From an uncultured Halobacteriales archaeon (GTDB taxonomy: Archaea > Thermoplasmatota > E2 > JACPAO01): DNA of 55,407 bases. Position numbers and translations under genes: made by a program. The notes beneath the pieces are model-generated. The model searched no databases. It was given only the letters and a program-made list of their open reading frames with translations, and had not been told where the DNA came from. Of this stretch, positions 75 to 32,969 are shown piece by piece (within the stretch, counting starts at the first letter, position 1; each line of letters starts with the position of its first letter). The stretch is taken from assembly GCA_964408365.1 (NCBI GenBank), contig CAYOZB010000003.1, forward strand, positions 1 through 55,407, read 5' to 3'.

Positions 75-142
75 TTTTTTCGACCTCCGCCGTCCCGTTT
101 CCCGCGGAACGAGCGGGCGTTACTTAACGCTTCAGAGAACCG

Positions 143-772
143 TCACGGAACTTCCGAAATGTCCGTGGATTCCGCGGGCTGTGGTGGTTGCTTCAGGCTT
201 GTCTCGCCAAGCAGGGACGAGGCTTCGAGACCGCGGAAGATGGGCGGCAAGGCCGCGGCATAGAGTAAGCCGTGCAGGAGCGCGGGCACGACGTTGAACG
301 CGAGGCCCAAGAGGACGAGTGTCGTCCACAAGGTTCCGCGCGCGGCGTCGGGCGCGTCGGCGAGGATCCAATTGTAGAACACCCACGAGACGGAGTCGGC
401 GACGATGCTGTAGAGGATCGTGACGGCGAGGCCGAGGTCGAAGAGGATGATCCGGGTCCACCAGGTCACGCGCGCGAAGAAACGTGGGACGTCGACGAAG
501 TGGCCCACGATGCCGAAGGCGAGGCCAAAGAGTGTTTCGACGAACGTCATCGGCAGGAGGATGGGGTTGACGCCGGAGATCAATAGGTCGCTCCCGAGTC
601 GTCCCAGGAATCCGACCGCGGCGCCGGTGCGAATTCCGTACGCGAGGCCGGCGACGGCAAGGACGAGAAACGAGAGGCTCACGTTGGGGATCCAGACGAA
701 TGCGAGGCGGCCCGCGATTGATAGACTTGCGAGCGATAGGATTATCGCGAGGCGCAACGCGGGCGACTTCAT
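143..772 (-). CDS. ECF transporter substrate-specific S component (CbrT-like, probably cobalamin)
   Basis: Hydrophobic 209 aa protein with the N-terminal GRLAFVWIPNV motif typical of CbrT-type S components. It overlaps the T component by ATGA and lies near DUF4430 genes. Confidence 0.8.
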   Translation of the reverse strand: MKSPALRLAIILSLASLSIAGRLAFVWIPNVSLSFLVLAVAGLAYGIRTGAAVGFLGRLGSDLLISGVNPILLPMTFVETLFGLAFGIVGHFVDVPRFFARVTWWTRIILFDLGLAVTILYSIVADSVSWVFYNWILADAPDAARGTLWTTLVLLGLAFNVVPALLHGLLYAAALPPIFRGLEASSLLGETSLKQPPQPAESTDISEVP

Positions 773-1356
773 GCGCGTCTCCGGCCGAAGCCCGCGAGTT
801 CGAGTGCGAGCGCCTGGTCGCGCGCGCGCCGGATGGCATTGACGAAGAGCGGGACGATGATGGGGAGGAACTGTGTGGGCCGCGCCCAGGCCCGTTTGAT
901 CTCAAGGCCGCGCGACATCTGGGTCCGTCGGATCCGGTCGAAGTCTTCGCGAAGCGCCGGGACCAGGCGCAGCAGGCTCGCCGTGACGTAGAGTGGGAAC
1001 GGTCGCCGGGAGACGAGCGGGAGGAAATCTTCGACGGGGATGAGCCGCGCTGCCAACATTCCGATGGAAAACAGGCCGAGGACGCGAAGCATCTCAAGCG
1101 CGCCGATCCAAGCGCCGCCGATGCCGAAGTCGATGGAGCCGACATGGAAGGGTTGCAGCGAAGGAAGCGTAAACCCGTAGACCGCGGCGCCGATGAGAAT
1201 GGTGGTTGCGCCGAACACGATCCATGGAATGCGGCTTCCCGTCGCGAGGCTTGCGAGGCAGAGCAAGTAGAGGACGGCGCCGAGGATCCGCGCTGGTTCC
1301 GCCGGGAGCATGAACAGGAGGATTCCGGCCGCGGCGAGGGTGGCGGCAACGATCAG
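769..1356 (-). CDS. ECF transporter transmembrane T component (CbiQ/EcfT family)
   Basis: Contains LLRLVPALREDFDRIRRTQMSRG and a C-terminal ALALELAGF, the EcfT coupling helices. The start is uncertain; a CTG overlapping the upstream stop is proposed (ORF track extends to 1491). Confidence 0.85.
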   Translation of the reverse strand: MIVAATLAAAGILLFMLPAEPARILGAVLYLLCLASLATGSRIPWIVFGATTILIGAAVYGFTLPSLQPFHVGSIDFGIGGAWIGALEMLRVLGLFSIGMLAARLIPVEDFLPLVSRRPFPLYVTASLLRLVPALREDFDRIRRTQMSRGLEIKRAWARPTQFLPIIVPLFVNAIRRARDQALALELAGFGRRRA

Positions 1357-2738
1357 GGAGCGCGTGGGCGCACCTCCACGATTGGTTGGATGGTTTGGTC
1401 GCGTTCGAGTCGCAGGTGGCCGTGTTCGATCCGGTGGACGGTGTCGCATCCGTCGATGAGTGCGTCGTCGTGGGTGGCGAGGACCACGCATGCTTGCTGC
1501 GCCGACCTGCGGAGGAACGAGAGAAGATCGGCGCGGCCCTTTTCGTCGAGACCATGCGTCGGTTCGTCAAGAAGCAACAAGTCGGCTCGGGCGGCGGACG
1601 TGCACGCGAGCGCGACCCGCTCCTGTTCCCCACCGGAAAGGGAGAGTGGGTGGCGATCTAGAAGCGAGTCGATCCCGAATTCCGCTGCGGCCGCCGTCGT
1701 GCGGCGTTCCGTCTCCTCTCTCGAGAAACCCGCGTTGGTCGGTTGGAAGCAGATCTCGTCGCGGCTTCTTTCCATGAAGAATGTCTCGCGCGGTTCTTCG
1801 ATGTGATGCGCGCGGAAACGTGCCAGCCCCGGGGGCGACATTTCGTGGACGGGTGCATCATCAAACGTCACTGTACCTGTGCGTGGCCGTTCGAGTCCTC
1901 CCAAGATGCGCAGCAAAGTGGACTTGCCGGAACCGTTGAGTCCGGCGATGGCGTGCAGACCCGTACCGAGTCGGAGCGTGGCGTGTTCGATCAGTCCACG
2001 GGCGTCGGCCAGATTCAACGCCACCAGACGAGCGTTGGCTGGTTGCGCTTGGGGACGCCGCCATTCTGCCGGCGCCGGGCCTGCGCCTGGTTTTGTGTTG
2101 CAGATTTCGCCGTCGGCGACGTGTAGCTGCAGCGTGGCGATAGGGTGCCATGGTTCGGGCTCGTGGGTGGCGACGACCACGAGGGCTTTCTCCGCGAAGC
2201 CCGAGATGTCGTTGATGACGACGTTTCGCCAGGCGGCGTCGAGATGGTTCAGAGGCTCATCAAGAAGCAGGAGGGATGGACCGTGGATGCGCGCGGCGAA
2301 AAGAGCCAACCGTCGGCGCTCGCCAGCGGACAGGCGATGGACCGGGACGCGGGCACGACCATCCAGGTGGATCTGTGCAAGGAGCCGCAGGGCTTCCTCT
2401 CGTGCGCCGCGGTATTTCCACCCATGCGCCTGGAGACGGAGCTGAAACTCCGTGACGGGGTCGTGGGCGAGGAACGCGTCGCGCGCGTCTTGGGGCACGA
2501 ACCCGATCTTCGCATCCTTGCCGCCCGCGTCTTGTGCTTCGACGGTGCCGCGCACATCGCCGCCTTGGAACTCGCGGAGCGTCCCGGTGAGTGCCTTGAG
2601 GAGGCTTGATTTGCCGGCGGCCGACGCGCCCGTGAGCAGCACGAGGCTCGGTCCTTCGAGTTCGAGTCGCGGGATGTTGAGGAGGTTCTTGCCGGCGCGG
2701 ATCCATTTGAGGTTTCGGACCTGGACGCGGATCGTCAG
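1353..2738 (-). CDS. ECF transporter ATPase with two fused ABC domains
   Basis: Two Walker A motifs (GASAAGKS, GLNGSGKST), two signature motifs (LSAGE, LSGGE) and two LLLLDEP Walker B motifs. Start uncertain (CTG 2738 or TTG 2807). Confidence 0.9.
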   Translation of the reverse strand: MTIRVQVRNLKWIRAGKNLLNIPRLELEGPSLVLLTGASAAGKSSLLKALTGTLREFQGGDVRGTVEAQDAGGKDAKIGFVPQDARDAFLAHDPVTEFQLRLQAHGWKYRGAREEALRLLAQIHLDGRARVPVHRLSAGERRRLALFAARIHGPSLLLLDEPLNHLDAAWRNVVINDISGFAEKALVVVATHEPEPWHPIATLQLHVADGEICNTKPGAGPAPAEWRRPQAQPANARLVALNLADARGLIEHATLRLGTGLHAIAGLNGSGKSTLLRILGGLERPRTGTVTFDDAPVHEMSPPGLARFRAHHIEEPRETFFMERSRDEICFQPTNAGFSREETERRTTAAAAEFGIDSLLDRHPLSLSGGEQERVALACTSAARADLLLLDEPTHGLDEKGRADLLSFLRRSAQQACVVLATHDDALIDGCDTVHRIEHGHLRLERDQTIQPIVEVRPRAP

Positions 2739-3517
2739 AGCTCCACGCTCCGGACCGTCAACGGCTGCGGCACGGAGCCGTTCGCCTGGCCGACCGCCGC
2801 CAAGCAATCGGGCAGGTTCCGAACAGGCACCCAGTACTGGACGGGGACGCCGCGCAACGCCGCCTCGATCGCGGCTTGCAAGGGGGCGAACTCGAAATGG
2901 ACGTCGCGGCCGAGTTCTTCCAGAAGCACGGCCGACGTGAGGTCATGGGCGCCGAGGCGGCCGGTGCCGTTGTTTCGACGAAGCATCGCGCTGGCGCGTC
3001 GTCGTTGTCCAGAGGTCAAGGACTCAGGGTGGGCGACGAACAGGAGGGGAGCGGGTTTCAACGCGACGATGCCACGCAACGCGCCGACGCGGACGAGCGC
3101 TCCTTTACGTGCGGCCGCTTTGGCGCGTCCCGTGGAGCCCGCGTACACCCTGGGCGCGGCGCGCAACCGTCCATCGCTCATGTAGAGGCCGACCTCGTCG
3201 CCTTCCTTGATGTTCGCTCCGGCCTGCGCGTCCGTCTCATCGATGAGCCGCAGGTTTCCGATCGCGTCGTCGACGAACCGCCGAAGGTCGCGCATCGAGC
3301 CGTGGAGCGCGTCGGTGCCGCGTGCGGTGGGCCGCCAGGCGCCTTCGCGGTTCTCGACGAGGGCGTCCTCGACGAGTCGTTTGAGGACGACGCTCACGGC
3401 TTGGACGCTGACGCCGAGCCGGTCGGCGAGCGTCTTGAGCTTCGCGTGACGCTGTCGGTGAAGCTCGAGGAGCAGCAGGATGCGGGTGGAGAGGCCTCTG
3501 GGCCGCGCGTCCGTCAC
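2735..3517 (-). CDS. Archaeal winged-HTH (MarR-like, COG1497-type) transcriptional regulator
   Basis: N-terminal LKTLADRLGVSVQAVSVVLKRLVEDALVE HTH followed by the IKEGDEVGLYMSDGRLRA domain seen in this archaeal family. First gene of the ECF operon. Confidence 0.8.
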   Translation of the reverse strand: MTDARPRGLSTRILLLLELHRQRHAKLKTLADRLGVSVQAVSVVLKRLVEDALVENREGAWRPTARGTDALHGSMRDLRRFVDDAIGNLRLIDETDAQAGANIKEGDEVGLYMSDGRLRAAPRVYAGSTGRAKAAARKGALVRVGALRGIVALKPAPLLFVAHPESLTSGQRRRASAMLRRNNGTGRLGAHDLTSAVLLEELGRDVHFEFAPLQAAIEAALRGVPVQYWVPVRNLPDCLAAVGQANGSVPQPLTVRSVEL

Positions 3518-3549
3518 GGTCGACGCTACGAGGCCCTGGTTTATGACGA

Positions 3550-3585
3550 TAATGCTCGCATTAAACTTGCATTGAAAAAATTCAA
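3550..3585. promoter_or_regulatory. Two palindromes in the AT-rich divergent promoter (candidate operators)
   Basis: TAATGC-tc-GCATTA at 3550-3563 and TTGAA-aaaa-TTCAA at 3572-3585, between divergent starts at 3517 and 3628. Confidence 0.45.
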
Positions 3586-3627
3586 CCGCGCTGAAAATTC
3601 ATATATGGGTGCCGTTTAGCGCCGTTC

Positions 3628-4578
3628 GTGCGCCTCGCGTTCCCGATCTTGTTTGTGGTCGCGGTTGCGGCGACGGCGGATGCGCGTTTTGCGGACACGC
3701 AGGGGTTCAGTGGCAAGCACGGGGTCACCTGCGTCTCGTGTCATTTTCCGGAAGTCGTCGAGCTGGGCACTCCGGCGGCGATCGCGGTCACGGGGTTGCC
3801 GACTGCGTGGGATTGGTCCACCGCGTACGATTTCACGATCACGGTTGAAGGCGGGCCGCCGGGGAACCCCGCGCCGGACACGCCGCAGGCCGGATTCGAC
3901 CTCGAGATCGACCTCGGAATCCTCGCGGCGGGCCACGACATGGATGGGCTCCTGCGGTTCCCGTCGGAACAGGAAGCGACCTACACAGGCATCGGCACCC
4001 AGGTGCGTTCGTGGAACGTCGTGTGGACAGCGCCGGCGCTCTCCGGCTATCCGAGCAACGCGACGTTCTGGATCGCGGTCATCGCGGCCAACGGCAACCA
4101 CGTCATGAACGGGCCCGACGTGACGGGCGAGCGCGGCGACCGAGGCGCAACGGCGCAATATGTTGTCGAACCGTCCGAGATGGCCCGCGAACGTTGGTCC
4201 CTGCAACCTCTGCCGCCGCCGATTCTCCAGCCCTACAATGTGACGGAGAGCGGCCCTTCCGTCCTCACAGGCACGGTCGCCGATTTCGCCGACGGCGCCG
4301 AAGTGCGGATCGACCACGGGGAATGGCAGGGCGCGACTGGATCACCCGGATTTTCCTTCCCTCTCCCACCCTGGACACCGGGTCGGCACACCATCGACGT
4401 GCGCGCGGTGTGGCAGAACCGCACGAGCGACCTGGTGTCGATCGCCGTCGACGTCGAAGATCCGCCCGGAGGGGCCTCCGCAACCTCCAGCACGGGTTCC
4501 GGCCTGGGTGTCTGGGTGTTCCTCGCGCTGCTTCTCGTCATTCCACTCGTTCCGTTCTTGTTGCGAATCCGAAGGTGA
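3628..4578 (+). CDS. Membrane-anchored surface protein with a CxxCH motif and Reeler-like (choice-of-anchor V-like) plus Ig-like domains
   Basis: Signal peptide, GVTCVSCH, WTAP and AANGN Reeler-like motifs, and a C-terminal TM helix with basic tail. Confidence 0.65.
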   Translation: MRLAFPILFVVAVAATADARFADTQGFSGKHGVTCVSCHFPEVVELGTPAAIAVTGLPTAWDWSTAYDFTITVEGGPPGNPAPDTPQAGFDLEIDLGILAAGHDMDGLLRFPSEQEATYTGIGTQVRSWNVVWTAPALSGYPSNATFWIAVIAANGNHVMNGPDVTGERGDRGATAQYVVEPSEMARERWSLQPLPPPILQPYNVTESGPSVLTGTVADFADGAEVRIDHGEWQGATGSPGFSFPLPPWTPGRHTIDVRAVWQNRTSDLVSIAVDVEDPPGGASATSSTGSGLGVWVFLALLLVIPLVPFLLRIRR

Positions 4579-9747: not shown

Positions 9748-9966
9748 AGGTCAGATTCTCACGAGCCGGATGAACACGGGACCCGGCAACGTGCCCGGGA
9801 CGTCGCACTCCACCATCGTCGGAATCGCGTTTCAGTAAAGCTTCGACCTCTACGTGACGATGTTCTACTGAGAGCACGCACCGCCCGATTATTCCGCCCT
9901 CGTGGACAACTGAGTCGCAAACTGGTTCCGGAACGGCTAAGAAGCGGTCCGCGTAAGTCGGGCCCT

Positions 9967-10284
9967 GGCCACGGAGCGGCAGCGCGACCGACGGTTGGCC
10001 CGGGAGTGATTCCGGGTTTCAGCTGAGGAACGTCCGCCCTCCACACAAAACGGGAGCCTCAAGAGAGGCGGCTGGGAGACTGGTCGCGGAGGCGCAGCTA
10101 CGACACAGCCGCGGGTTCAAGCGATGACGGGGACTGCCCCCGAGGTCGCCTGCGGACGTGATGAAACGGCCATCCGCCCCGGGAGCAAGCCCAGTATGGG
10201 TGCTCAGTAGAATGTCGCAAGCCGCTCCGGTCCTTCGGGATCGGGTCGGGGAACAGAAGGTGGCGTACTCGCCGCACCGTGGCC
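9967..10284 (+). ncRNA. rnpB: Archaeal RNase P RNA
   Basis: P1 GGCCACGG-a-GCGGC / GCCGC-a-CCGUGGCC; CR-I GAGGAACGUCCGCC; CR-V AACAGAAGGUGGCGUA forming P4 with a bulged U; UGAAAC (CR-III); GGAGCAAG; AGAAUG (CR-IV). Confidence 0.93.
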
Positions 10285-15395: not shown

Positions 15396-16844
15396 TCAAG
15401 ATTGAACTGGAACAGGTTTCACGACACTTTGCGCGGTGACGGTCGGCCAGTAGCGTCGCCATTTGCCTTCCTGCTTGATTGCAAGACGGCCCTTCGCGGC
15501 CAATTGTTTCGTGTGATAGGAGACCGATTCGCGTGGCAGGCCAAGGAGTTGCGAGAGTTCCTTCTGGGTCAGGCCGGGATTGGCGCCGATCGCTTCGACG
15601 AGTTGGATCTGGGTGCGCGTGAGGTAGGATTCCATCACGATCTTCGGGCCGCGCACGTAGAAGCGCGTGCGGAAACCGTCCCGGACGCCTTTGACGTATT
15701 CTTGGCCCTCGAGGATGCGCAAATGGTGGACCAATGTGCCGTTGGAGAGCGCGAGTTCGCGACGTAGGTCGGAGAAGCTCGGTCCCGGGTTCTGTTTGAT
15801 GAACCGGTAGAGTTCGTCGCGTTTGTTGTGTTCCAGCACTTCGTCCTTTTCGAGACGGCTGAAGCCGGGGATTAGGAAGAGGAGTTTCCAGAGTTGGAAG
15901 CGCCCATACTCCGTCGCGAGACCAGCGGCGAGCACCAGGAGGCCGCCACCCATGAAGGTGAACCCGACCGCGGCGCCGACGTCCTTGACGGTTCCGCTCA
16001 ACCCGGCGGAGCTGGATTGGACGGTGAACGTCACGAGGGAATCCATAAGCACCAGTTGTTCGCCGCGGGTCTCGGCGCGGATGCCGGTCCCGTCCCATAG
16101 CGCGGCGACCTTGGCAGGCTGGATGGAGCCTTGGTCGATCTTGTGTCCGACTTTGGGAAGGATCAGGAAGACCTGCGGATCGTCTCCTGCGTCCGAAGGT
16201 TCTTGGAAGTCGGCGCGATCGTTCTCGGCGGGCGACTGGAAAGGCCAGGCAAGATTGCCCGGGTCGACAGCCGGTGACGAGGAACGGGCCCACGGCGGAC
16301 CGGCTCCGCTCCAGCCGCCCCAGTCGTTTTCACCGAACGCTGTTCCCATGTAGCAGCCGATCGCTTCGCCGAACGAGTCCAATTCGTCGAATTCGACTTG
16401 GACCCGGTGTGACGCTCCGCGGGCCGTCGGATAGAGGAATGTGAACGCGGCCGTGACCGTGATCGGACTCGTCGAAGAGACCGCGCCTGTGGCGCGTTCC
16501 GCGCGGCCACTCATCAGGCTGAGGCGCTTGGGTGTCTTTTCATCGATCAGGGCAAGCTCGAAGGCGTCGAAACATTGCGGCGCGTCCTCCTCGAACTTCA
16601 TCGTGCCTTCGGCGCTGAAGCGGGAGACCTCGTCCATCGTGACGGTCCCGTCTCCGTTCCCGAAGTCGTCATCGATTTCGGTTCGCATTTCCACCGCGTC
16701 TTCAGCTGTCAGGACGGCGACCATGCGGACGACGACCTCATCGCTGTCTACGTCAACGGCGATCTGTTCGTCGATCTCGTCTGCGGAGGCGACCGGGCTC
16801 AGAGCCACCAAAATTGCCAAGGCGACCAGCGTCCACCGCGTCAT
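15396..16844 (-). CDS. Membrane-spanning regulator: signal peptide, extracellular domain, TM helix, cytoplasmic double winged-HTH (COG3398-type)
   Basis: MTRWTLVALAILVALSPVASA leader; TM near AAVGFTFMGGGLLVLAAG; VLEHNKRDELYRFIKQNPGPSFSDL...HHLRILE and a second NPGLTQKELS HTH. Confidence 0.88.
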   Translation of the reverse strand: MTRWTLVALAILVALSPVASADEIDEQIAVDVDSDEVVVRMVAVLTAEDAVEMRTEIDDDFGNGDGTVTMDEVSRFSAEGTMKFEEDAPQCFDAFELALIDEKTPKRLSLMSGRAERATGAVSSTSPITVTAAFTFLYPTARGASHRVQVEFDELDSFGEAIGCYMGTAFGENDWGGWSGAGPPWARSSSPAVDPGNLAWPFQSPAENDRADFQEPSDAGDDPQVFLILPKVGHKIDQGSIQPAKVAALWDGTGIRAETRGEQLVLMDSLVTFTVQSSSAGLSGTVKDVGAAVGFTFMGGGLLVLAAGLATEYGRFQLWKLLFLIPGFSRLEKDEVLEHNKRDELYRFIKQNPGPSFSDLRRELALSNGTLVHHLRILEGQEYVKGVRDGFRTRFYVRGPKIVMESYLTRTQIQLVEAIGANPGLTQKELSQLLGLPRESVSYHTKQLAAKGRLAIKQEGKWRRYWPTVTAQSVVKPVPVQS

Positions 16845-16970
16845 TCCAACCGTTCGACCTCTGCCCAGGATATATGCCGTCGATGGAGGGGGTTTATCCG
16901 CATTGTCGCCGCGGATTTGCCCTCGAGGCTCCAGATGAAGCGCGGAAACACTGGAAACATCGCTTCCAGA

Positions 16971-16983
16971 GAATGGTTTTATC
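16971..16983 (+). promoter_or_regulatory. BRE/TATA-like promoter of the structured RNA
   Basis: GAATGGTTTTATC lies about 25-30 nt upstream of the 5' end of the terminal helix (17008), the usual archaeal spacing. Confidence 0.55.
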
Positions 16984-17007
16984 GGCCAAGTGATTACAGA
17001 GGTTTCC

Positions 17008-17424
17008 GCGCAGGCCCTGTGGGGCGGCGCGGCTGGTCCCGCCCTCGCGGTGGGACCGACACAAAGGCTCCGGCCCATGGACCGGAACCTTGTGCAGTAC
17101 GCATCAGAACATCCATCGGCCCGGACTCGCTGCCTCGGTGGCGGGCCCGGCTTCCGCGCCACGAAAGTGGCCGGACCGCCCGACTCGACGGAGAAACAGG
17201 GCGGCTCGACCGGCAACGGTCGGGAGAACGAGCCGAAGTCGAAAGGCTTCGGCCGGATGCCAGAAGGAACTCCGACCCAGGACGGGGCGACCCGACCGGG
17301 GCCCGATCTCGAAAGGGATTAGGCGCAAGCGGAGGCCGGCGCCAACCGCCGAACAGGCGGGACGCGGACCGGCTCACGATGCGGAAAGGGCGCTGTAATG
17401 CCCGGCCGCCCCACAGACCTTCGC
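17008..17424 (+). ncRNA. Large structured non-coding RNA of unknown family (~415 nt)
   Basis: Perfect 12-bp closing helix 17017-17028/17405-17416, more than ten internal helices, five GNRA tetraloops, G-U pairs on the + strand, upstream TATA-like box, downstream T-tract, and no credible ORF. Confidence 0.8.
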
Positions 17425-17425
17425 G

Positions 17426-17445
17426 ACTTCTTCGCGATTTTTGTT
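17426..17445 (+). terminator. Pyrimidine-rich / oligo-T terminator after the structured RNA
   Basis: ACTTCTTCGCGATTTTTGTT (T5 at 17438-17442) immediately follows the closing helix. Confidence 0.45.
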
Positions 17446-17457
17446 CCAAAGCGGACG

Positions 17458-18165
17458 CTACTTTCCGCCCGCGGCTTTGAGGTCCGCGCGGTCATCCGTG
17501 TCGAAATCGTTCGGGATGCCGCCCGTGAGCGTGGACAGGCCCAGCGTGTTCTCGACGGCCCAATACATCACAGATTGGGAATTGGAGCTGTGCTTCTCGT
17601 GCGCGTCGTCCTCGTGGTCCGTTTGCATGGGAATGCCGAGGTTGACCAAACCGATCGCGTGACCAAACTCGTGCACGAGCACCGCCCGCTCGATGTCCGA
17701 TGCGCCGAAGCCGAGAAGTCCGCCTCCATTGATCGCGTCCGGGAACACGGCGATGCGACCCTTTTGGAAGAACACGCCCAACACCTTGCCGTTGCTCGTG
17801 TCGCCGTCACTGTTCCCGTCGACGTACAACACCGTCAGAACGGCGCGACCTCCGGTGGATGAGGTGGAGGAGCGATCGTCGGCGAGGTTGGAGAGATCGC
17901 GCGACGACCACGTTCTCGAATCACCGTCAAAGGCATGACGTTGGACCTCGATCCCGCCGGGCTTGGACAGGCGTTCGTGCGCGCGCTGCTCGAGAAGCTC
18001 GATCGCCGCGTCGCGGGGCGCGGCGTTCTCGTCGTAAAAGACCTCGATCAGCATCGAACTGTAGCGCGAATCCGAGACGAAGTCCCTCGGCCCAGGCCCC
18101 CCGAGGCCAAAACAGCCGGACACGGCGGGAAGGGTGGCAATCAAGATAACGAGAGAGATGCGCAC
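17458..18165 (-). CDS. Zinc metalloprotease lipoprotein (metzincin-like)
   Basis: Lipobox VSGC, HEFGHAIGLVN zinc motif, and SVMY Met-turn. Confidence 0.88.
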   Translation of the reverse strand: MRISLVILIATLPAVSGCFGLGGPGPRDFVSDSRYSSMLIEVFYDENAAPRDAAIELLEQRAHERLSKPGGIEVQRHAFDGDSRTWSSRDLSNLADDRSSTSSTGGRAVLTVLYVDGNSDGDTSNGKVLGVFFQKGRIAVFPDAINGGGLLGFGASDIERAVLVHEFGHAIGLVNLGIPMQTDHEDDAHEKHSSNSQSVMYWAVENTLGLSTLTGGIPNDFDTDDRADLKAAGGK

Positions 18166-18240: not shown

Positions 18241-18254
18241 CGAAAGACAGAAAT

Positions 18255-18343
18255 CGGCGGCGGAGGGATTCGAACCCTCGAGTTGGTTCGCACCAATGCG
18301 TCCGGTTCGCAACCGGCCGCCCTAACCACTAGGCAACGCCGCC
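18255..18343 (-). tRNA. tRNA with anticodon GCG (Arg) and an unusually long, class II-like variable region
   Basis: Acceptor GGCGGCG/CGCCGCC with G73; D arm GCCUAGUGGUUAGGGC; anticodon loop UUGCGAA; 21-nt variable region; T arm GAGGG-UUCGAAU-CCCUC. CCA not encoded. Confidence 0.9.
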
Positions 18344-18383
18344 GAGTCCGGGCGGGGACTTCGCACCCCCGCCCTATTCTCTT

Positions 18384-18656
18384 TCAGAATTTCGCCGCCG
18401 CCAGGTGGCCCACGCCCGCATCGTGCAGGGTCTGGATCCATTTCGGGCCGGTCGCTTGCGCGACGAACTTCGGCAAGCGCAGCTGGTTCCACTCTTGCAC
18501 CGTGACGTCGCGCACGCCATACCCAAGGGCGCCATGGTCCGGGCACGTGTAGATTTCGCGCATTCGGCCATGGAGGCTCGTCACGAGTCGGGGAACGTCG
18601 ATTCCGCAGACCGGGCACGAGCCGCGGTCCTTGAGCATTGCCGGCATTTGGGGCAC
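18384..18656 (-). CDS. Small CPxCG-type zinc-finger protein
   Basis: CPVCG...CPDHG ligand set in a protein of about 85-90 aa. Start uncertain. Confidence 0.65.
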   Translation of the reverse strand: MPQMPAMLKDRGSCPVCGIDVPRLVTSLHGRMREIYTCPDHGALGYGVRDVTVQEWNQLRLPKFVAQATGPKWIQTLHDAGVGHLAAAKF

Positions 18657-29513: not shown

Positions 29514-29615
29514 CCCGGTTTTTCTGCGCGTCCACGCGCAACTTCGACCCACTCCTTTATCGGGGGAGCCGGGTCTTGAACCCCGATGGGAGGCACCGGG
29601 CCAACGGGCGTAGCC

Positions 29616-32600
29616 ATGTCGCCCGAGCAGAAGGCGTACTTCGAACGCCTCGAGAAGGACGCCCATCGCATCCTCGACATCGCCAAGACCGCCCGCAAAG
29701 CCGGCCTCGATCCAAGCCTCAATGTGGAGATCCCGCTCGCTCCCGACTTGGCCGCCCGCGTCGAAGAACAGGTCCAGATCAAAGGCGTCGCCGACCGCGT
29801 GCGCGAACTTTCCAAACAATACTCGTCGCGCGAACTCGTCGCGCTCCACTGCGCCAAAGAAGTCGCGACCGGCAAATTCGGCGCCTGGCCCAGCAAAGAG
29901 CAGGCCCTCGACAAATCCGTCCGCACTGGATTGTCGATCCTCACCGAAGGAATCCTCGTCGCTCCGCTCGAAGGCATCGCCAAAGTGCTCATCGGGAAGA
30001 ACAACGACGGCACGGACTACGTCGACCTGTACTTCGCCGGACCGATCCGCGCAGCCGGCGGAACCGCCCAAGCCATGAGCGTCCTCATCGCCGACGTCGT
30101 GCGTCGCGAACTCGGCGTCGGACGCTACCACGCCACGCAGGCCGAGATCGAACGCATGAAGGAAGAGGTCCCCGCGTACAAACGCGCGCAACACCTCCAA
30201 TACGCGCCCGAAGGCGACGAGATCGAGCACATCATGCGACAATGCCCGGTCTGCATCAACGGCGAAGGCACCGAGCAGGAAGAAGTCACAGGACACCGCG
30301 ACCTTCCACGCATCGAAGGCAACCGACTCCGCGGCGGCGCCGTCCTGGTCCTCGCCGAAGGCTTGACGCAGAAAGCGCCCAAGATCATGAAGGTCGTCTC
30401 GGCCCTGAAAGTGCCCGAATGGGACTTCTTGGAACGGTTCATCAAGAAAGCCCCCGAAGCATCCAGGGAAAAGGGCGACGACATCGAGGAGATCGAAGCC
30501 TCCGACAAGTTCATGGTAGACCTCATCGGCGGCCGACCTGTCTTCAGCCACGCGTCGCGCCCGGGCGGGTTCCGGTTACGCTACGGACGTTCGCGCACCG
30601 GCGGCCTCGCATCGACCTCGGTGTCGCCCGTCGCCATGCACGTCGTCGATGATTTCCTCGCGATCGGCACCCAGATGAAACTCGAGCGGCCTGGCAAAGG
30701 GACCATTGCTACGCCCTGCAGCGAACTCGAATCCCCCATCCTCCTCCTAAGAAACGGCGACCTTGTCCAACCCAAGAACATCGAAGCTTGGCGAGCCTTG
30801 CCGTCCCCCGTCGCGCAGATCGTCGACCTCGGGGAGATCCTCATCCCGTTCGGCGAGTTCCTCGAGAACAACGCGCTCCTTTCCGACGCCAGTTTCACCG
30901 TCGAATGGTGGCTCGCCGAACTCCGAAACGCCGCCGGAGACGACGTCGCCAAAGAATGGCTCCTCAAACACCCCGACTTCCCCGAAGCCGTCCAACTCGC
31001 CCACACCCACAAAGTCCCGCTCCACCCCGATCATAACCTGTTCTGGCACGACCTTACGTGGGAGGCATACACCGGCCTCAGCCTCGCCCTCGAATCCGCC
31101 ACCCTCGACCACGGCATCCTCTGCGTACCCAAAGGCGTCGGCGGAAAGAACACCCTCGTCACCCTCGGCGTCCTCCACCGCGAAACACCCACCCACTACG
31201 AGATCCGCGAACGCATCCTCCCCCTCCTTGCCGGCTTGGGACTCTGGTCCGACGGCGCAAGCATCAAACCCACCAGCCAACGCGACCCCGTCCACGCCGT
31301 TGCTGCCACCAAACACGCGGTGCTCGGCGCCGTCACTCGACTCACCGGCGTCACCGTCAAAGCACGCGCACCGACCCGCATCGGCGCACGCATGGGCCGA
31401 CCCGAAAAAGCCGACAAACGCGCCATGTCCCCACCCGTCCACGTCCTCTTCCCCATCGGACAAGACGGCGGCGCGCAACGCGACATCGAAGCCGCCGCCG
31501 AAAAAGGCACGACCCGCGTCAAGGTGGGCATCCGACGCTGTCCCACGTGCGGCCGCGAAGCCTACATGGTCCGCTGCACCTGCGGCTCACGCACCGACCC
31601 GACCGGCTCCGCGCCCGCCGACCGTGACTTCCCCGTCCGCGAAGAATTCACCCAAGCACTGGGACGACTCCGCGGCGTCCGACGGCCCGACAAACTCAAG
31701 GGAGTCGAAGGGCTCATCAGCGCCGCCAAGACGCCCGAGCCGTTGGAGAAAGGGATCCTGCGCGCGCTCCACGACGTGTGGGTCTTCAAGGACGGCACCT
31801 TGCGCTTCGACGCCACCGATGCACCGCTCACCCATGTCAAACCGTCAGAGATCGGCACGTCCATTCCGAGGATGCACGAGCTCGGCTACACGCTCGACGC
31901 CCACGGCGGCGCCTTGGAGCGGCAGGATCAGGTCGTCGAGATGAGGGTCCAGGACGTTGTGTTGCCGCGGTCGGCGGGTGAATATTTTGTCCGTTGCGCC
32001 AAGTTCATCGACGATCTCCTCGAGCGGTTCTACAATCTTCCTCCGTTCTACCTCGCCAAGGAACCCGCGGACTTGGTCGGCCATCTCATCGCGGGCCTCG
32101 CGCCGCATACGTCCGGCGCGGTACTCGGCCGGATCATCGGATTTACCAAAGCGAACGTGTGGTACAATCACCCGTTCTACATCGCGGCGCGCAGAAGAAA
32201 CGCGGATGGGGATGAAGACTCGTGCATGCTTCTGCTGGATGCGTTCCTGAATTTCAGCCGCGCGTTCGTTCCGGACCGTCGCGGCGGGCTCATGGATCTG
32301 CCGCTCGTCCTGGCGACGCGCGTCGATCCGAGTGAGATCGACAAGGAAGCGCTCAACGTCGACGTCGGCTGGTCCTACCCGCTCGAGCTTTACCGCGCAT
32401 CGGAGCAACATCTCTCTGCCAAGGAGCTGGCCAAGAAAGTCGAGAGTGTCGGCCACCGGATCGGGACGCCGCGTCAGTTCGAAGGCTTCGGATACACCCT
32501 CGACTCCAACTCGATCCACGAGGGGCCGTTGGATTCGAGTTACAAGACACTCGGCTCCATGCCGGAGAAGATGTCGGCCCAGCTCGCGTTGGCCGACAAG

Positions 32601-32969
32601 CTGCGGGGCGTGGACGCGGCGGACGTCGCCGGGCGCGTGATCAGTCACCATTTGCTCCCAGACCTGATCGGGAACCTGAAGGCGTTCGCGAAGCAGAAAG
32701 TGCGCTGCACCAAATGCAACACGTCCTACCGACGGATGCCGGTCACTGGGAAATGTACGAAGGTGCTCGCGAACGGCCGCGACCAGTGCGGGAACCCGGT
32801 CACGTTGACGGTGCATCAGGCGTCGGTCCGAAAATACATGGACCTGTGTCTGCAATTGTCGGAGCGGTATGCGATTCCGGAGTACACGCGTCAGCACATT
32901 CGGCTTGTGCAGCAGTTCTTGGATGACACGTTCCGTTTGCGCGACATGAAACTCGCCTCGTTCGGTTGA
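29616..32969 (+). CDS. polC: DNA polymerase D large subunit (DP2)
   Basis: AGPIRAAGGTAQA, GGFRLRYGRSR, RMGRPEKA, catalytic DGDED and C-terminal Zn finger. No intein. Confidence 0.98.
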   Translation: MSPEQKAYFERLEKDAHRILDIAKTARKAGLDPSLNVEIPLAPDLAARVEEQVQIKGVADRVRELSKQYSSRELVALHCAKEVATGKFGAWPSKEQALDKSVRTGLSILTEGILVAPLEGIAKVLIGKNNDGTDYVDLYFAGPIRAAGGTAQAMSVLIADVVRRELGVGRYHATQAEIERMKEEVPAYKRAQHLQYAPEGDEIEHIMRQCPVCINGEGTEQEEVTGHRDLPRIEGNRLRGGAVLVLAEGLTQKAPKIMKVVSALKVPEWDFLERFIKKAPEASREKGDDIEEIEASDKFMVDLIGGRPVFSHASRPGGFRLRYGRSRTGGLASTSVSPVAMHVVDDFLAIGTQMKLERPGKGTIATPCSELESPILLLRNGDLVQPKNIEAWRALPSPVAQIVDLGEILIPFGEFLENNALLSDASFTVEWWLAELRNAAGDDVAKEWLLKHPDFPEAVQLAHTHKVPLHPDHNLFWHDLTWEAYTGLSLALESATLDHGILCVPKGVGGKNTLVTLGVLHRETPTHYEIRERILPLLAGLGLWSDGASIKPTSQRDPVHAVAATKHAVLGAVTRLTGVTVKARAPTRIGARMGRPEKADKRAMSPPVHVLFPIGQDGGAQRDIEAAAEKGTTRVKVGIRRCPTCGREAYMVRCTCGSRTDPTGSAPADRDFPVREEFTQALGRLRGVRRPDKLKGVEGLISAAKTPEPLEKGILRALHDVWVFKDGTLRFDATDAPLTHVKPSEIGTSIPRMHELGYTLDAHGGALERQDQVVEMRVQDVVLPRSAGEYFVRCAKFIDDLLERFYNLPPFYLAKEPADLVGHLIAGLAPHTSGAVLGRIIGFTKANVWYNHPFYIAARRRNADGDEDSCMLLLDAFLNFSRAFVPDRRGGLMDLPLVLATRVDPSEIDKEALNVDVGWSYPLELYRASEQHLSAKELAKKVESVGHRIGTPRQFEGFGYTLDSNSIHEGPLDSSYKTLGSMPEKMSAQLALADKLRGVDAADVAGRVISHHLLPDLIGNLKAFAKQKVRCTKCNTSYRRMPVTGKCTKVLANGRDQCGNPVTLTVHQASVRKYMDLCLQLSERYAIPEYTRQHIRLVQQFLDDTFRLRDMKLASFG

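Follow-up and report, generated by a model that had tools for sequence, protein, structure and literature searches.

What is encoded in an archaeal intergenic gap that holds no protein-like gene and can be folded, as RNA, along nearly its whole length? The question arises at one locus in contig CAYOZB010000003.1 (assembly GCA_964408365.1) of an uncultured Halobacteriales archaeon, of which the whole stretch of 55,407 nt was analysed and is called the window below. A first-pass annotation, prepared by reading the DNA without database searches, had described the gap as a free-standing and compactly folded archaeal non-coding RNA (ncRNA), and this description is supported by the fold, by covariation among homologs, by contigs from RNA libraries and by a blank result in Rfam. 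On these grounds we hold it very likely that the locus harbours a real, novel, stable and structured ncRNA. It is also likely that positions 17006-17425 on the + strand are a stand-alone gene for a stable, highly expressed ncRNA of about 420 nt, whose class has not been catalogued previously and which belongs to one archaeal family.

The comparison is based on the window genome (G000) and its closest relatives, namely G001 of the same genus, whose copy is cut by a contig end, G002 and G003 of the same family (f1), and a metagenome contig (L137). The stretch 17006-17425 (+) has a minimum free energy of -241.9 kcal/mol, compared with -195.2 ± 7.6 kcal/mol in 100 dinucleotide shuffles, none of which is as good; thus the fold is far better than shuffled sequence (z -6.15). 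The same stretch on the minus strand gives z -4.49, and the G002 homolog folded alone gives z -6.28, again with 0 of 100 shuffles as good. All hairpins named by the first-pass annotation are present at their places on direct reading. The parts of the molecule, all on the + strand, are as follows.

17006-17425 (+): structured ncRNA, ~420 nt; conservation starts at 17006, the terminal helix reaches 17007/17425, and RNA contigs cover 17014-17418 only
17007-17014 / 17418-17425 (+): terminal helix P0, formed in 4 of 4 full-length sequences and covarying
17017-17028 / 17405-17416 (+): closing helix P1, from direct reading
17035-17057 (+): hairpin P2, 9 pairs, 97% of cells paired
17060-17094 (+): hairpin P3, with the invariant palindrome CCAUGG at its tip (17075-17080)
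17095-17101 (+): conserved single-stranded CAGUACG, running into the 5' strand of P4
17100-17105 / 17378-17383 (+): long-range helix P4, a duplex in 4 of 4 sequences, in three sequence versions
17112-17268 (+): core multi-helix junction domain, in which P5 (17112-17120 / 17259-17268) encloses the next five elements
17121-17150 (+): core hairpin with a YNCG loop
17153-17175 (+): core hairpin with an invariant GAAA loop (17163-17166); its upper part, 17158-17171, reads directly as GCCAC-GAAA-GUGGC
17176-17204 (+): core element
17206-17223 (+): core hairpin with an invariant GCAA loop (17213-17216); its upper part, 17208-17221, reads directly as GACCG-GCAA-CGGUC
17232-17253 (+): core hairpin with a GNRA loop, read directly as GCCGAAGUC-GAAA-GGCUUCGGC
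17269-17377 (+): 3' domain, with two GNRA hairpins (next two lines) and a hairpin at 17346-17360; 75-100% of cells paired in its helices
17283-17294 (+): hairpin CGGG-GCGA-CCCG, from direct reading
17305-17320 (+): hairpin GAUCUC-GAAA-GGGAUU, from direct reading
17388-17403 (+): last hairpin before the 3' strand of P1, 5 pairs, 100% paired, 2 changed on both sides

Altogether about 17 helices have support from compensatory changes. P1 has 10 pairs with 97.5% of cells paired, and 3 of its pairs are changed on both sides. The CCAUGG of P3 is identical in all five sequences, whereas the stem beneath it differs; each RNA has a single copy, always at the apex of a hairpin, with a purine following on its 3' side in every case (G in G003, A in the rest). 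A single-stranded GGAA ahead of the last hairpin is strictly conserved as well. The 3' domain varies in length among the relatives, with a 28-nt insertion in G002 and L137, and the alignment is less certain there.

Homologs of the RNA do exist, and covariation in their consensus helices is strong. With two, three and four full-length sequences, RNAalifold gives 108, 124 and 117 pairs, of which 29, 57 and 53 respectively are changed on both sides and still pair. The four-sequence consensus has 115 pairs and 454 cells, with 93.6% of the cells paired, compared with 77.7 ± 1.4% in shuffles and 33-47% when the partners are slid. Changes on both sides occur in 53 of the 115 pairs, compared with 21.6 ± 3.5 in shuffles and 3-16 with slid partners; in both measures 0 of 500 shuffles reach the observed value, a significance that these controls overstate because the sequences are few and closely related. 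For the core domain, where all five sequences can be used, 30 of 48 pairs are changed on both sides and 97.8% of cells are paired (slid controls 33-47%). MAFFT misaligned P0 and P4, and both were examined directly. The extension of the closing helix by GCG/CGC and AGG/CCU, suggested in the first-pass annotation, covaries, with AGG/CCU becoming GGG/CCC in G003 and nine perfect pairs in L137. Its long-range pairing of 17100-17105 with 17378-17383 holds equally, the CGCAUC/GAUGCG of the window genome being replaced by CGACCC/GGGUCG in G002 and L137; a local alternative to P4 (helix 16 of the four-sequence consensus) has weaker support. Two other pairings suggested there do not survive the comparison. 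In place of CAUCC/GGAUG (17110/17255), the conserved helix is P5, 17112-17120 / 17259-17268, with 6 of 8 pairs changed on both sides, and the 11-bp helix 17147-17157 / 17329-17339 appears only in the single-sequence fold of the window genome, where it competes with the covarying hairpins 17121-17150 and 17153-17175.

The homologs also bear on the strand and on coding potential. The consensus helices hold 41 G-U cells against 8 A-C cells, and 93.6% of the cells pair on the + strand compared with 86.3% on the minus strand. The excess of G-U cells favours the + strand, and the tetraloops read as GNRA or YNCG on the + strand only, so that the orientation proposed from the outset is retained. Between G000 and G002 the alignment gaps measure 1, 1, 3, 2, 28, 2 and 1 columns, and such indels among homologs leave no conserved reading frame; therefore the RNA is non-coding. 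Long open reading frames (ORFs) can be drawn across the stretch on both strands, as a chance by-product of 69% G+C.

Is the stretch transcribed? A survey of public runs with a 901-nt query finds part of it in 20 of the 21 listed runs, from 15 studies, 11 being on record as RNA, with study labels of soil, permafrost, ice, sediment and wastewater. The expression evidence itself comes from assembled contigs of four metatranscriptome runs (3 studies), at a likeness of at least 88%. In all four runs the contig cover starts at 17014 and ends at 17418, and the depth is 0 over 16800-16985 and 17420-17636, so that the contigs from RNA libraries cover the ncRNA stretch alone; the zero-depth flanks argue against carry-over of DNA. 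Inside the ncRNA the summed word depths run from ~90 to 4400, with best bins from 292 (run X4) to 4386 (run X9). Library adapter letters stand directly next to the 5'-side positions 17014, 17019 and 17026 and the 3'-side positions 17396, 17414 and 17418, and none of the loose contig ends at these boundaries runs on into other genomic sequence. Such cover and adapter positions are to be expected of a discrete RNA that ends close to these boundaries.

Each soil run yields 45-50 contigs with many variant letters, that is, a population of related RNAs. Among the variants, the change 17126 C>T is accompanied by 17145 G>A, and 17207 C>T by 17222 G>A. Each couple corresponds to a base pair of the model, and its two changes have equal depths in X9; for the second couple this also holds in X7. 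The three loop variants, 17243 A>G, 17312 A>C and 17313 A>G, leave the GNRA pattern intact. The variants thus respect the fold, being either paired or GNRA-preserving, and no variant of CCAUGG is among those listed for the four runs. Two contigs contain joins that lead backwards: one of X9 joins 17388 back to 17026, and a cyclic one of X4 runs from 17418 back into 17130-17159. A circular or permuted form is not supported by them, since the two joins disagree and neither links the mapped ends; they are probably artefacts of reverse transcription or assembly on a very structured template.

We then ask whether the RNA belongs to a known family. At gathering thresholds, Rfam 15 finds in the whole window only an RNase P RNA at 9972-10279 (134.5 bits) and a transfer RNA (tRNA) at 18255-18343. 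The former, already noticed in the first reading, is canonical and covers the full model. When all 4227 families are run over 16800-17600 at E up to 10, nothing falls on the ncRNA, the sole rows being tRNA-Sec (E 0.14, on the opposite strand and outside the ncRNA) and a microRNA model (E 9.1); likewise, a permissive scan at E up to 5 of the loci L005, L012, L137 and L002 finds nothing on it. Hence the earlier statement that no class could be named stands, both at gathering scores and at permissive E values. Individual families give the same answer. The archaeal RNase P RNA model (RF00373, gathering score 84 bits) does not match the ncRNA in searches that recover true RNase P RNAs at 134.5, 136.5 and 124.7 bits, and the P4 blocks of that RNA (GAGGAA.GUCC and ACAGAAGG..GGC.UAC), visible in the alignment of the true gene, are not found on reading 17006-17425. 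The model of the archaeal signal recognition particle (SRP) RNA (RF01857, 96.5 bits) leaves the ncRNA unmatched, and the SRP RNA of the window genome lies on another contig (G000:C42:20552-20864, 201.6 bits). As for transfer-messenger RNA (tmRNA), ARAGORN reports tRNA-Arg only in the window, no Rfam tmRNA model matches and no reading frame is conserved. Group I and group II introns have no Rfam match at E up to 10, their core being checked by model search only; the ncRNA is intergenic, splits no coding or RNA gene and has no flanking exons or intron-type ORF. OLE, ROOL, GOLLD, HEARO and raiA, all families of release 15, have no match at E up to 10 either. No IscB, TnpB or transposase domain, as would be the context of an omega RNA, occurs in the flanking ORFs, and the ncRNA is single copy. 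Collections of phages (50,697 records), plasmids (72,556 records) and viral contigs contain no match to it, and our literature search, in the portions of the sources that were available, returned nothing describing a comparable archaeal RNA.

The distribution of the RNA is narrow. It is present once in the window genome (assembly of 3.4 Mb in 297 contigs, 82% complete), and a BLAST-type search of 61 relatives finds it in G001 and G002. Five other matches of that search, of 24-29 nt, are taken as chance; L003, the one that was read, is otherwise unlike the ncRNA. A covariance model of the core domain with 172 positions (R1), run over 38 genomes of the order, identifies it in 4, which are all four genomes of the family (G000-G003), and in none from the two sister families (0 of 32 in f2, 0 of 2 in f3). 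A rebuilt model (R2, E up to 1) lists 20 of the 38 genomes; among them the four f1 genomes score 114-179 bits and the best other 26.2 bits. The two best matches outside the family were rejected on reading, the one in G004 being an array of repeated tRNA-gene fragments and the one in G020 coding-like sequence. The G004 array (L173:1450-1900, G004:C9, minus strand) consists of a tRNA gene followed by several repeated copies of one tRNA fragment and looks like nested integration scars. With filters off, R1 gives a best E of 0.32 over 27 loci around the syntenic zinc-ribbon gene (described below) in f2 and f3; in G004 a lipoprotein-like ORF comes directly after that gene.

Beyond the order, a metagenome scan with a three-part pattern gives 10 loci, of which one is a homolog, the full-length copy on the 9-kb contig L137 (136 bits), and the other nine are unrelated sequence on reading. 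Scanning genome contigs with a 19-nt degenerate pattern of the 5' end gives at least 120 loci, almost all in G+C-rich bacteria; over 120 of these loci R2 finds one true copy, L115 (178.6 bits), which is not counted as independent since its score and coordinates are the same as those of the G002 copy. A further R2 match, L070 (21.6 bits), falls at another place than the pattern and is taken as chance. Nothing credible is found in a phylum sample of 151 genomes, where two weak matches (29.2 and 22.4 bits) are both inside coding-looking sequence; the class search (151 genomes) used stricter filters, by which even the G003 copy was missed. These negatives hold for the models used and for the genomes searched, many of them incomplete. 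As far as detectable, then, the ncRNA is restricted to one family of uncultured soil and permafrost archaea, plus environmental relatives.

The genes around the ncRNA show which parts of the locus are kept. On its 5' side the window has a minus-strand gene at 15396-16847 with HVO_0163-type and MarR-type helix-turn-helix (HTH) domains, transcribed divergently, and on its 3' side a convergent ORF at 17458-18165 (-) of 235 aa, with only a sub-threshold matrixin-like match at its HExxH region. A tRNA-Arg gene comes 830 nt downstream of the ncRNA. This gene, tRNA-Arg(GCG) at 18254-18344 (-), measures 91 nt, more than a plain tRNA, and so probably contains an intron. Within the family, a gene for a small zinc-ribbon protein (64-83 aa, CPxCG ... 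CPxHG; no Pfam or NCBIfam family above cut-off) converges on the 3' end of the ncRNA, and a TrkA gene comes after it. The zinc-ribbon gene adjoins the ncRNA directly in G002, G003 and L137 and is 1 kb off in G000, the only one in which the tRNA-Arg and the 235-aa HExxH ORF intervene; both are missing at the same spot in the other three. The RNase P RNA gene lies upstream of the ncRNA on the same strand, at 0.75 kb (G003), 2.4 kb (L137), 4.0 kb (G001) and 6.7 kb (G000). The two neighbours were located as listed.

Window 18459-18650 (-): zinc-ribbon gene
L005:832-1083 (+): zinc-ribbon gene
L012:22-246 (+): zinc-ribbon gene
L137:4018-4182 (+): zinc-ribbon gene
Window 9972-10279 (+): RNase P RNA gene
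L012:1422-1727 (-): RNase P RNA gene
L137:7065-7358 (-): RNase P RNA gene
G001:C1:4265-4558 (-): RNase P RNA gene

The order TrkA, zinc-ribbon, ncRNA, RNase P RNA is found in G000, G003 and L137, and G001 and G002 are consistent with it as far as their contigs reach; the genes immediately upstream of the ncRNA vary among genomes. In G002 the RNase P matches all stay below threshold (29.7 and 21.2 bits); one lies on the contig of the ncRNA, 4 kb upstream of it. In the sister-family genome G004, the RNase P RNA and the zinc-ribbon gene are on separate contigs. The zinc-ribbon gene is present in 32 of the 38 genomes of the order, including 26 of 32 f2 and 2 of 2 f3 genomes that have no ncRNA. Because it is so widespread without the ncRNA, the linkage of the two looks like plain synteny.

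These data allow the other explanations to be weighed. Rfam might have missed a highly divergent representative of one of the known large families (RNase P, SRP, tmRNA, group I/II intron, or OLE/ROOL/GOLLD/HEARO/raiA), and paired ends, 5' hairpins, a long-range helix and GNRA loops are indeed an architecture common to RNase P and SRP RNAs. In four loci the ncRNA follows the RNase P RNA gene on the same strand at a distance of 0.75-6.7 kb, so an origin by tandem duplication is also conceivable. Yet no match to the 4227 families turns up, whether in the window (E up to 10) or in the homolog loci (E up to 5), the genome already has a canonical RNase P RNA (134.5 bits) and an SRP RNA (201.6 bits), ARAGORN finds no tmRNA, and neither flanking exons nor an intron-type ORF is present, which makes such a membership very unlikely. 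The RNA could instead represent a new ribozyme class, with an active site formed by its compact, GNRA-rich fold. In size and complexity it resembles large ribozymes, and the strictly conserved single-stranded CAGUACG and GGAA, plus two tetraloops, would suit this reading; however, no substrate, cleavage site or processing junction is evident and the RNA contigs span the molecule without a consistent break, so we regard it as an unlikely explanation.

The location of the gene bears on two further explanations. Since tRNA genes are common integration sites, the tRNA-Arg gene 830 nt downstream in the window genome might hint at a mobile element or virus, with the RNA comparable to the phage-linked ROOL and GOLLD or to the guide RNAs of IscB and TnpB. 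But the ncRNA is single copy with the same chromosomal neighbours across genera, the phage, plasmid and viral-contig collections lack it, its flanks have no transposase, IscB or TnpB domain, and in G002, G003 and L137 the corresponding place has neither the tRNA nor the protease gene; we consider this highly improbable. Least credible to us, with hardly any chance of being right, is a role as leader, trailer or antisense RNA acting in cis on a flanking gene, or as the messenger RNA of a small protein. The long ORFs drawable on both strands would count in its favour, but the indels disrupt all reading frames, RNA cover of the flanks is zero, and the ncRNA is kept where its neighbours differ between genomes. 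Moreover, with the HTH gene divergent and the protease ORF convergent, the ncRNA is no gene's 5' leader.

What remains preferred is an independent structured RNA that is transcribed apart from its neighbours. Both ends pair in the long terminal helix P0/P1, enclosing the two 5' hairpins, P4, a core junction domain of five helices and the variable 3' domain. For its mode of action we propose the following. The closed ends and compact fold may make the RNA long-lived, and a long life would explain its abundance. It would act in trans, as an RNA or RNA-protein scaffold and possibly as a catalyst, rather than as a messenger RNA or a cis-regulator. The CCAUGG tip of P3 and the invariant GNRA loops (GAAA and GCAA) may serve as contact surfaces, either for self-association, as a kissing-loop dimer or a higher assembly, or for binding a partner. 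A role in scaffolding or assembly, of an RNA-protein or RNA-only kind, is a tentative suggestion that falls somewhat short of an even chance. Self-association through the CCAUGG loop, the most specific of these ideas, is doubtful. Also speculative, and in our view improbable on balance, is the idea that in this RNA the bacterial ornate RNAs have their first archaeal counterpart, an abundant homodimer or larger RNA-only or RNA-dominated assembly held by a CCAUGG kissing loop and GNRA-receptor contacts and performing a new structural or catalytic task.

Several points weigh against our interpretation as a whole. The comparison has only five sequences, one of them incomplete and all close kin; the structure tested was derived from these same sequences, and the alignment A5 was fitted to the structure. 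From assembled contigs neither the strand nor the exact ends or the expression level can be proved; the ends are deduced from adapters and the limits of cover. CCAUGG is predicted to pair with itself in 3 of 4 sequences, closing the tip of its own hairpin, which leaves dimerisation as only one of several readings. The ncRNA has no recorded partner protein, substrate or activity, and the zinc-ribbon protein was rejected as a specific partner, its gene being present in 28 of 34 sister-family genomes without the ncRNA. Finally, the narrow distribution argues against a core cellular role.

Several known systems can be compared with the RNA. To our knowledge, very few large structured RNAs are known in archaea beyond ribosomal RNA, RNase P RNA and SRP RNA. 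The OLE RNA, with a length of ~600 nt, is likewise large, intricately folded, lineage-restricted, chromosomal, very highly expressed and without known biochemical activity; it is however bacterial and tied to the genes of its partner protein, while the ncRNA is archaeal, ~420 nt long and stands alone. High expression and a protein partner are described for OLE in one report (PMC3413148). The ornate multi-helix RNAs ROOL and GOLLD, which another report describes as RNA-only homo-oligomers (PMC12286853), provide the model for the idea of self-association from palindromic and GNRA loops. Unlike them, the ncRNA has no phage, plasmid or viral match, is in conserved chromosomal synteny and matches no model. 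ROOL and GOLLD are also bacterial or phage-associated and larger. Archaeal RNase P RNA shares with the ncRNA the size class, paired ends, a long-range helix, a multi-domain fold, the character of an abundant stable RNA and a neighbouring gene; it differs in that its model gives the ncRNA no score, its P4 blocks are absent on reading, and the genome has its own full-length RNase P RNA. The archaeal SRP (7S) RNA is similar in its end-to-end terminal helix followed by two 5' hairpins, in being free-standing and abundant, and in an upstream CGCTTC, but its model does not match the ncRNA, which lacks the long helix 5 or helix 8 arrangement. The dimerisation-initiation hairpins of retroviruses have 6-nt palindromic kissing loops, and P3 is like them in its 6-nt G+C-rich palindrome at the tip, its 3' purine and its invariance over a varying stem; the retroviral RNA is an entirely unrelated molecule, and dimerisation through CCAUGG is hypothetical.

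RNAs of such a profile have repeatedly proved to be ribozymes, ribonucleoprotein cores or self-assembling architectures. The present one reaches an abundance at which it assembles from soil and ice metatranscriptomes in which its neighbouring genes are silent, and it shows that ordinary soil RNA data still contain abundant RNA species without a name. A molecule of this size is suited to chemical probing and cryo-electron microscopy, and public metatranscriptomes hold natural variants from which a deep alignment could quickly be built.

The flanks of the ncRNA contain candidate signals for its transcription, listed below.

16961-16966 (+): box CGCTTC, ~40-60 nt before the ncRNA, found on reading upstream of 5 of 5 homologs; possibly promoter-associated
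16977-16983 (+): TATA-like box TTTTATC, ~25 nt before the first conserved base; putative promoter element
17438-17442 (+): run of five T (T5), 13 nt past P0; likely transcription stop

Both the TATA-like box and the downstream T-tract had been pointed out in the first reading and are confirmed in place, TTTTATC about 25 nt upstream and T5 13 nt downstream, with roles that are presumed. TTTTATC is read as a promoter from the geometry of archaeal promoters; AT-rich boxes lie at a similar distance upstream in G001 and G003, and an A/T-rich ATTA is located at about -10 of the ncRNA. The mature 3' end is probably upstream of T5, near 17418-17425. Just ahead of T5, the letters 17422-17436 (CGCGA-CUUCU-UCGCG) could form a small hairpin that would compete with the 3' strand of P0; it may be a terminator hairpin or an alternative pairing in the primary transcript, and is not obvious in the relatives. 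CGCTTC occurs ~40-45 nt upstream of both the ncRNA (16961-16966) and the SRP RNA gene (L008:1458-1463, G000:C42), and its reverse complement ~25-30 nt upstream of the RNase P RNA (9943-9948); it is possibly a promoter element common to stable-RNA genes, though it may also be coincidental. Elsewhere in the window, 29586-32969 (+) encodes a full-length large subunit of the archaeal DNA polymerase D (PolD) with three DP2 domains (E 1e-113 to 1e-131), which supports an archaeal host from the PolD-bearing lineages.

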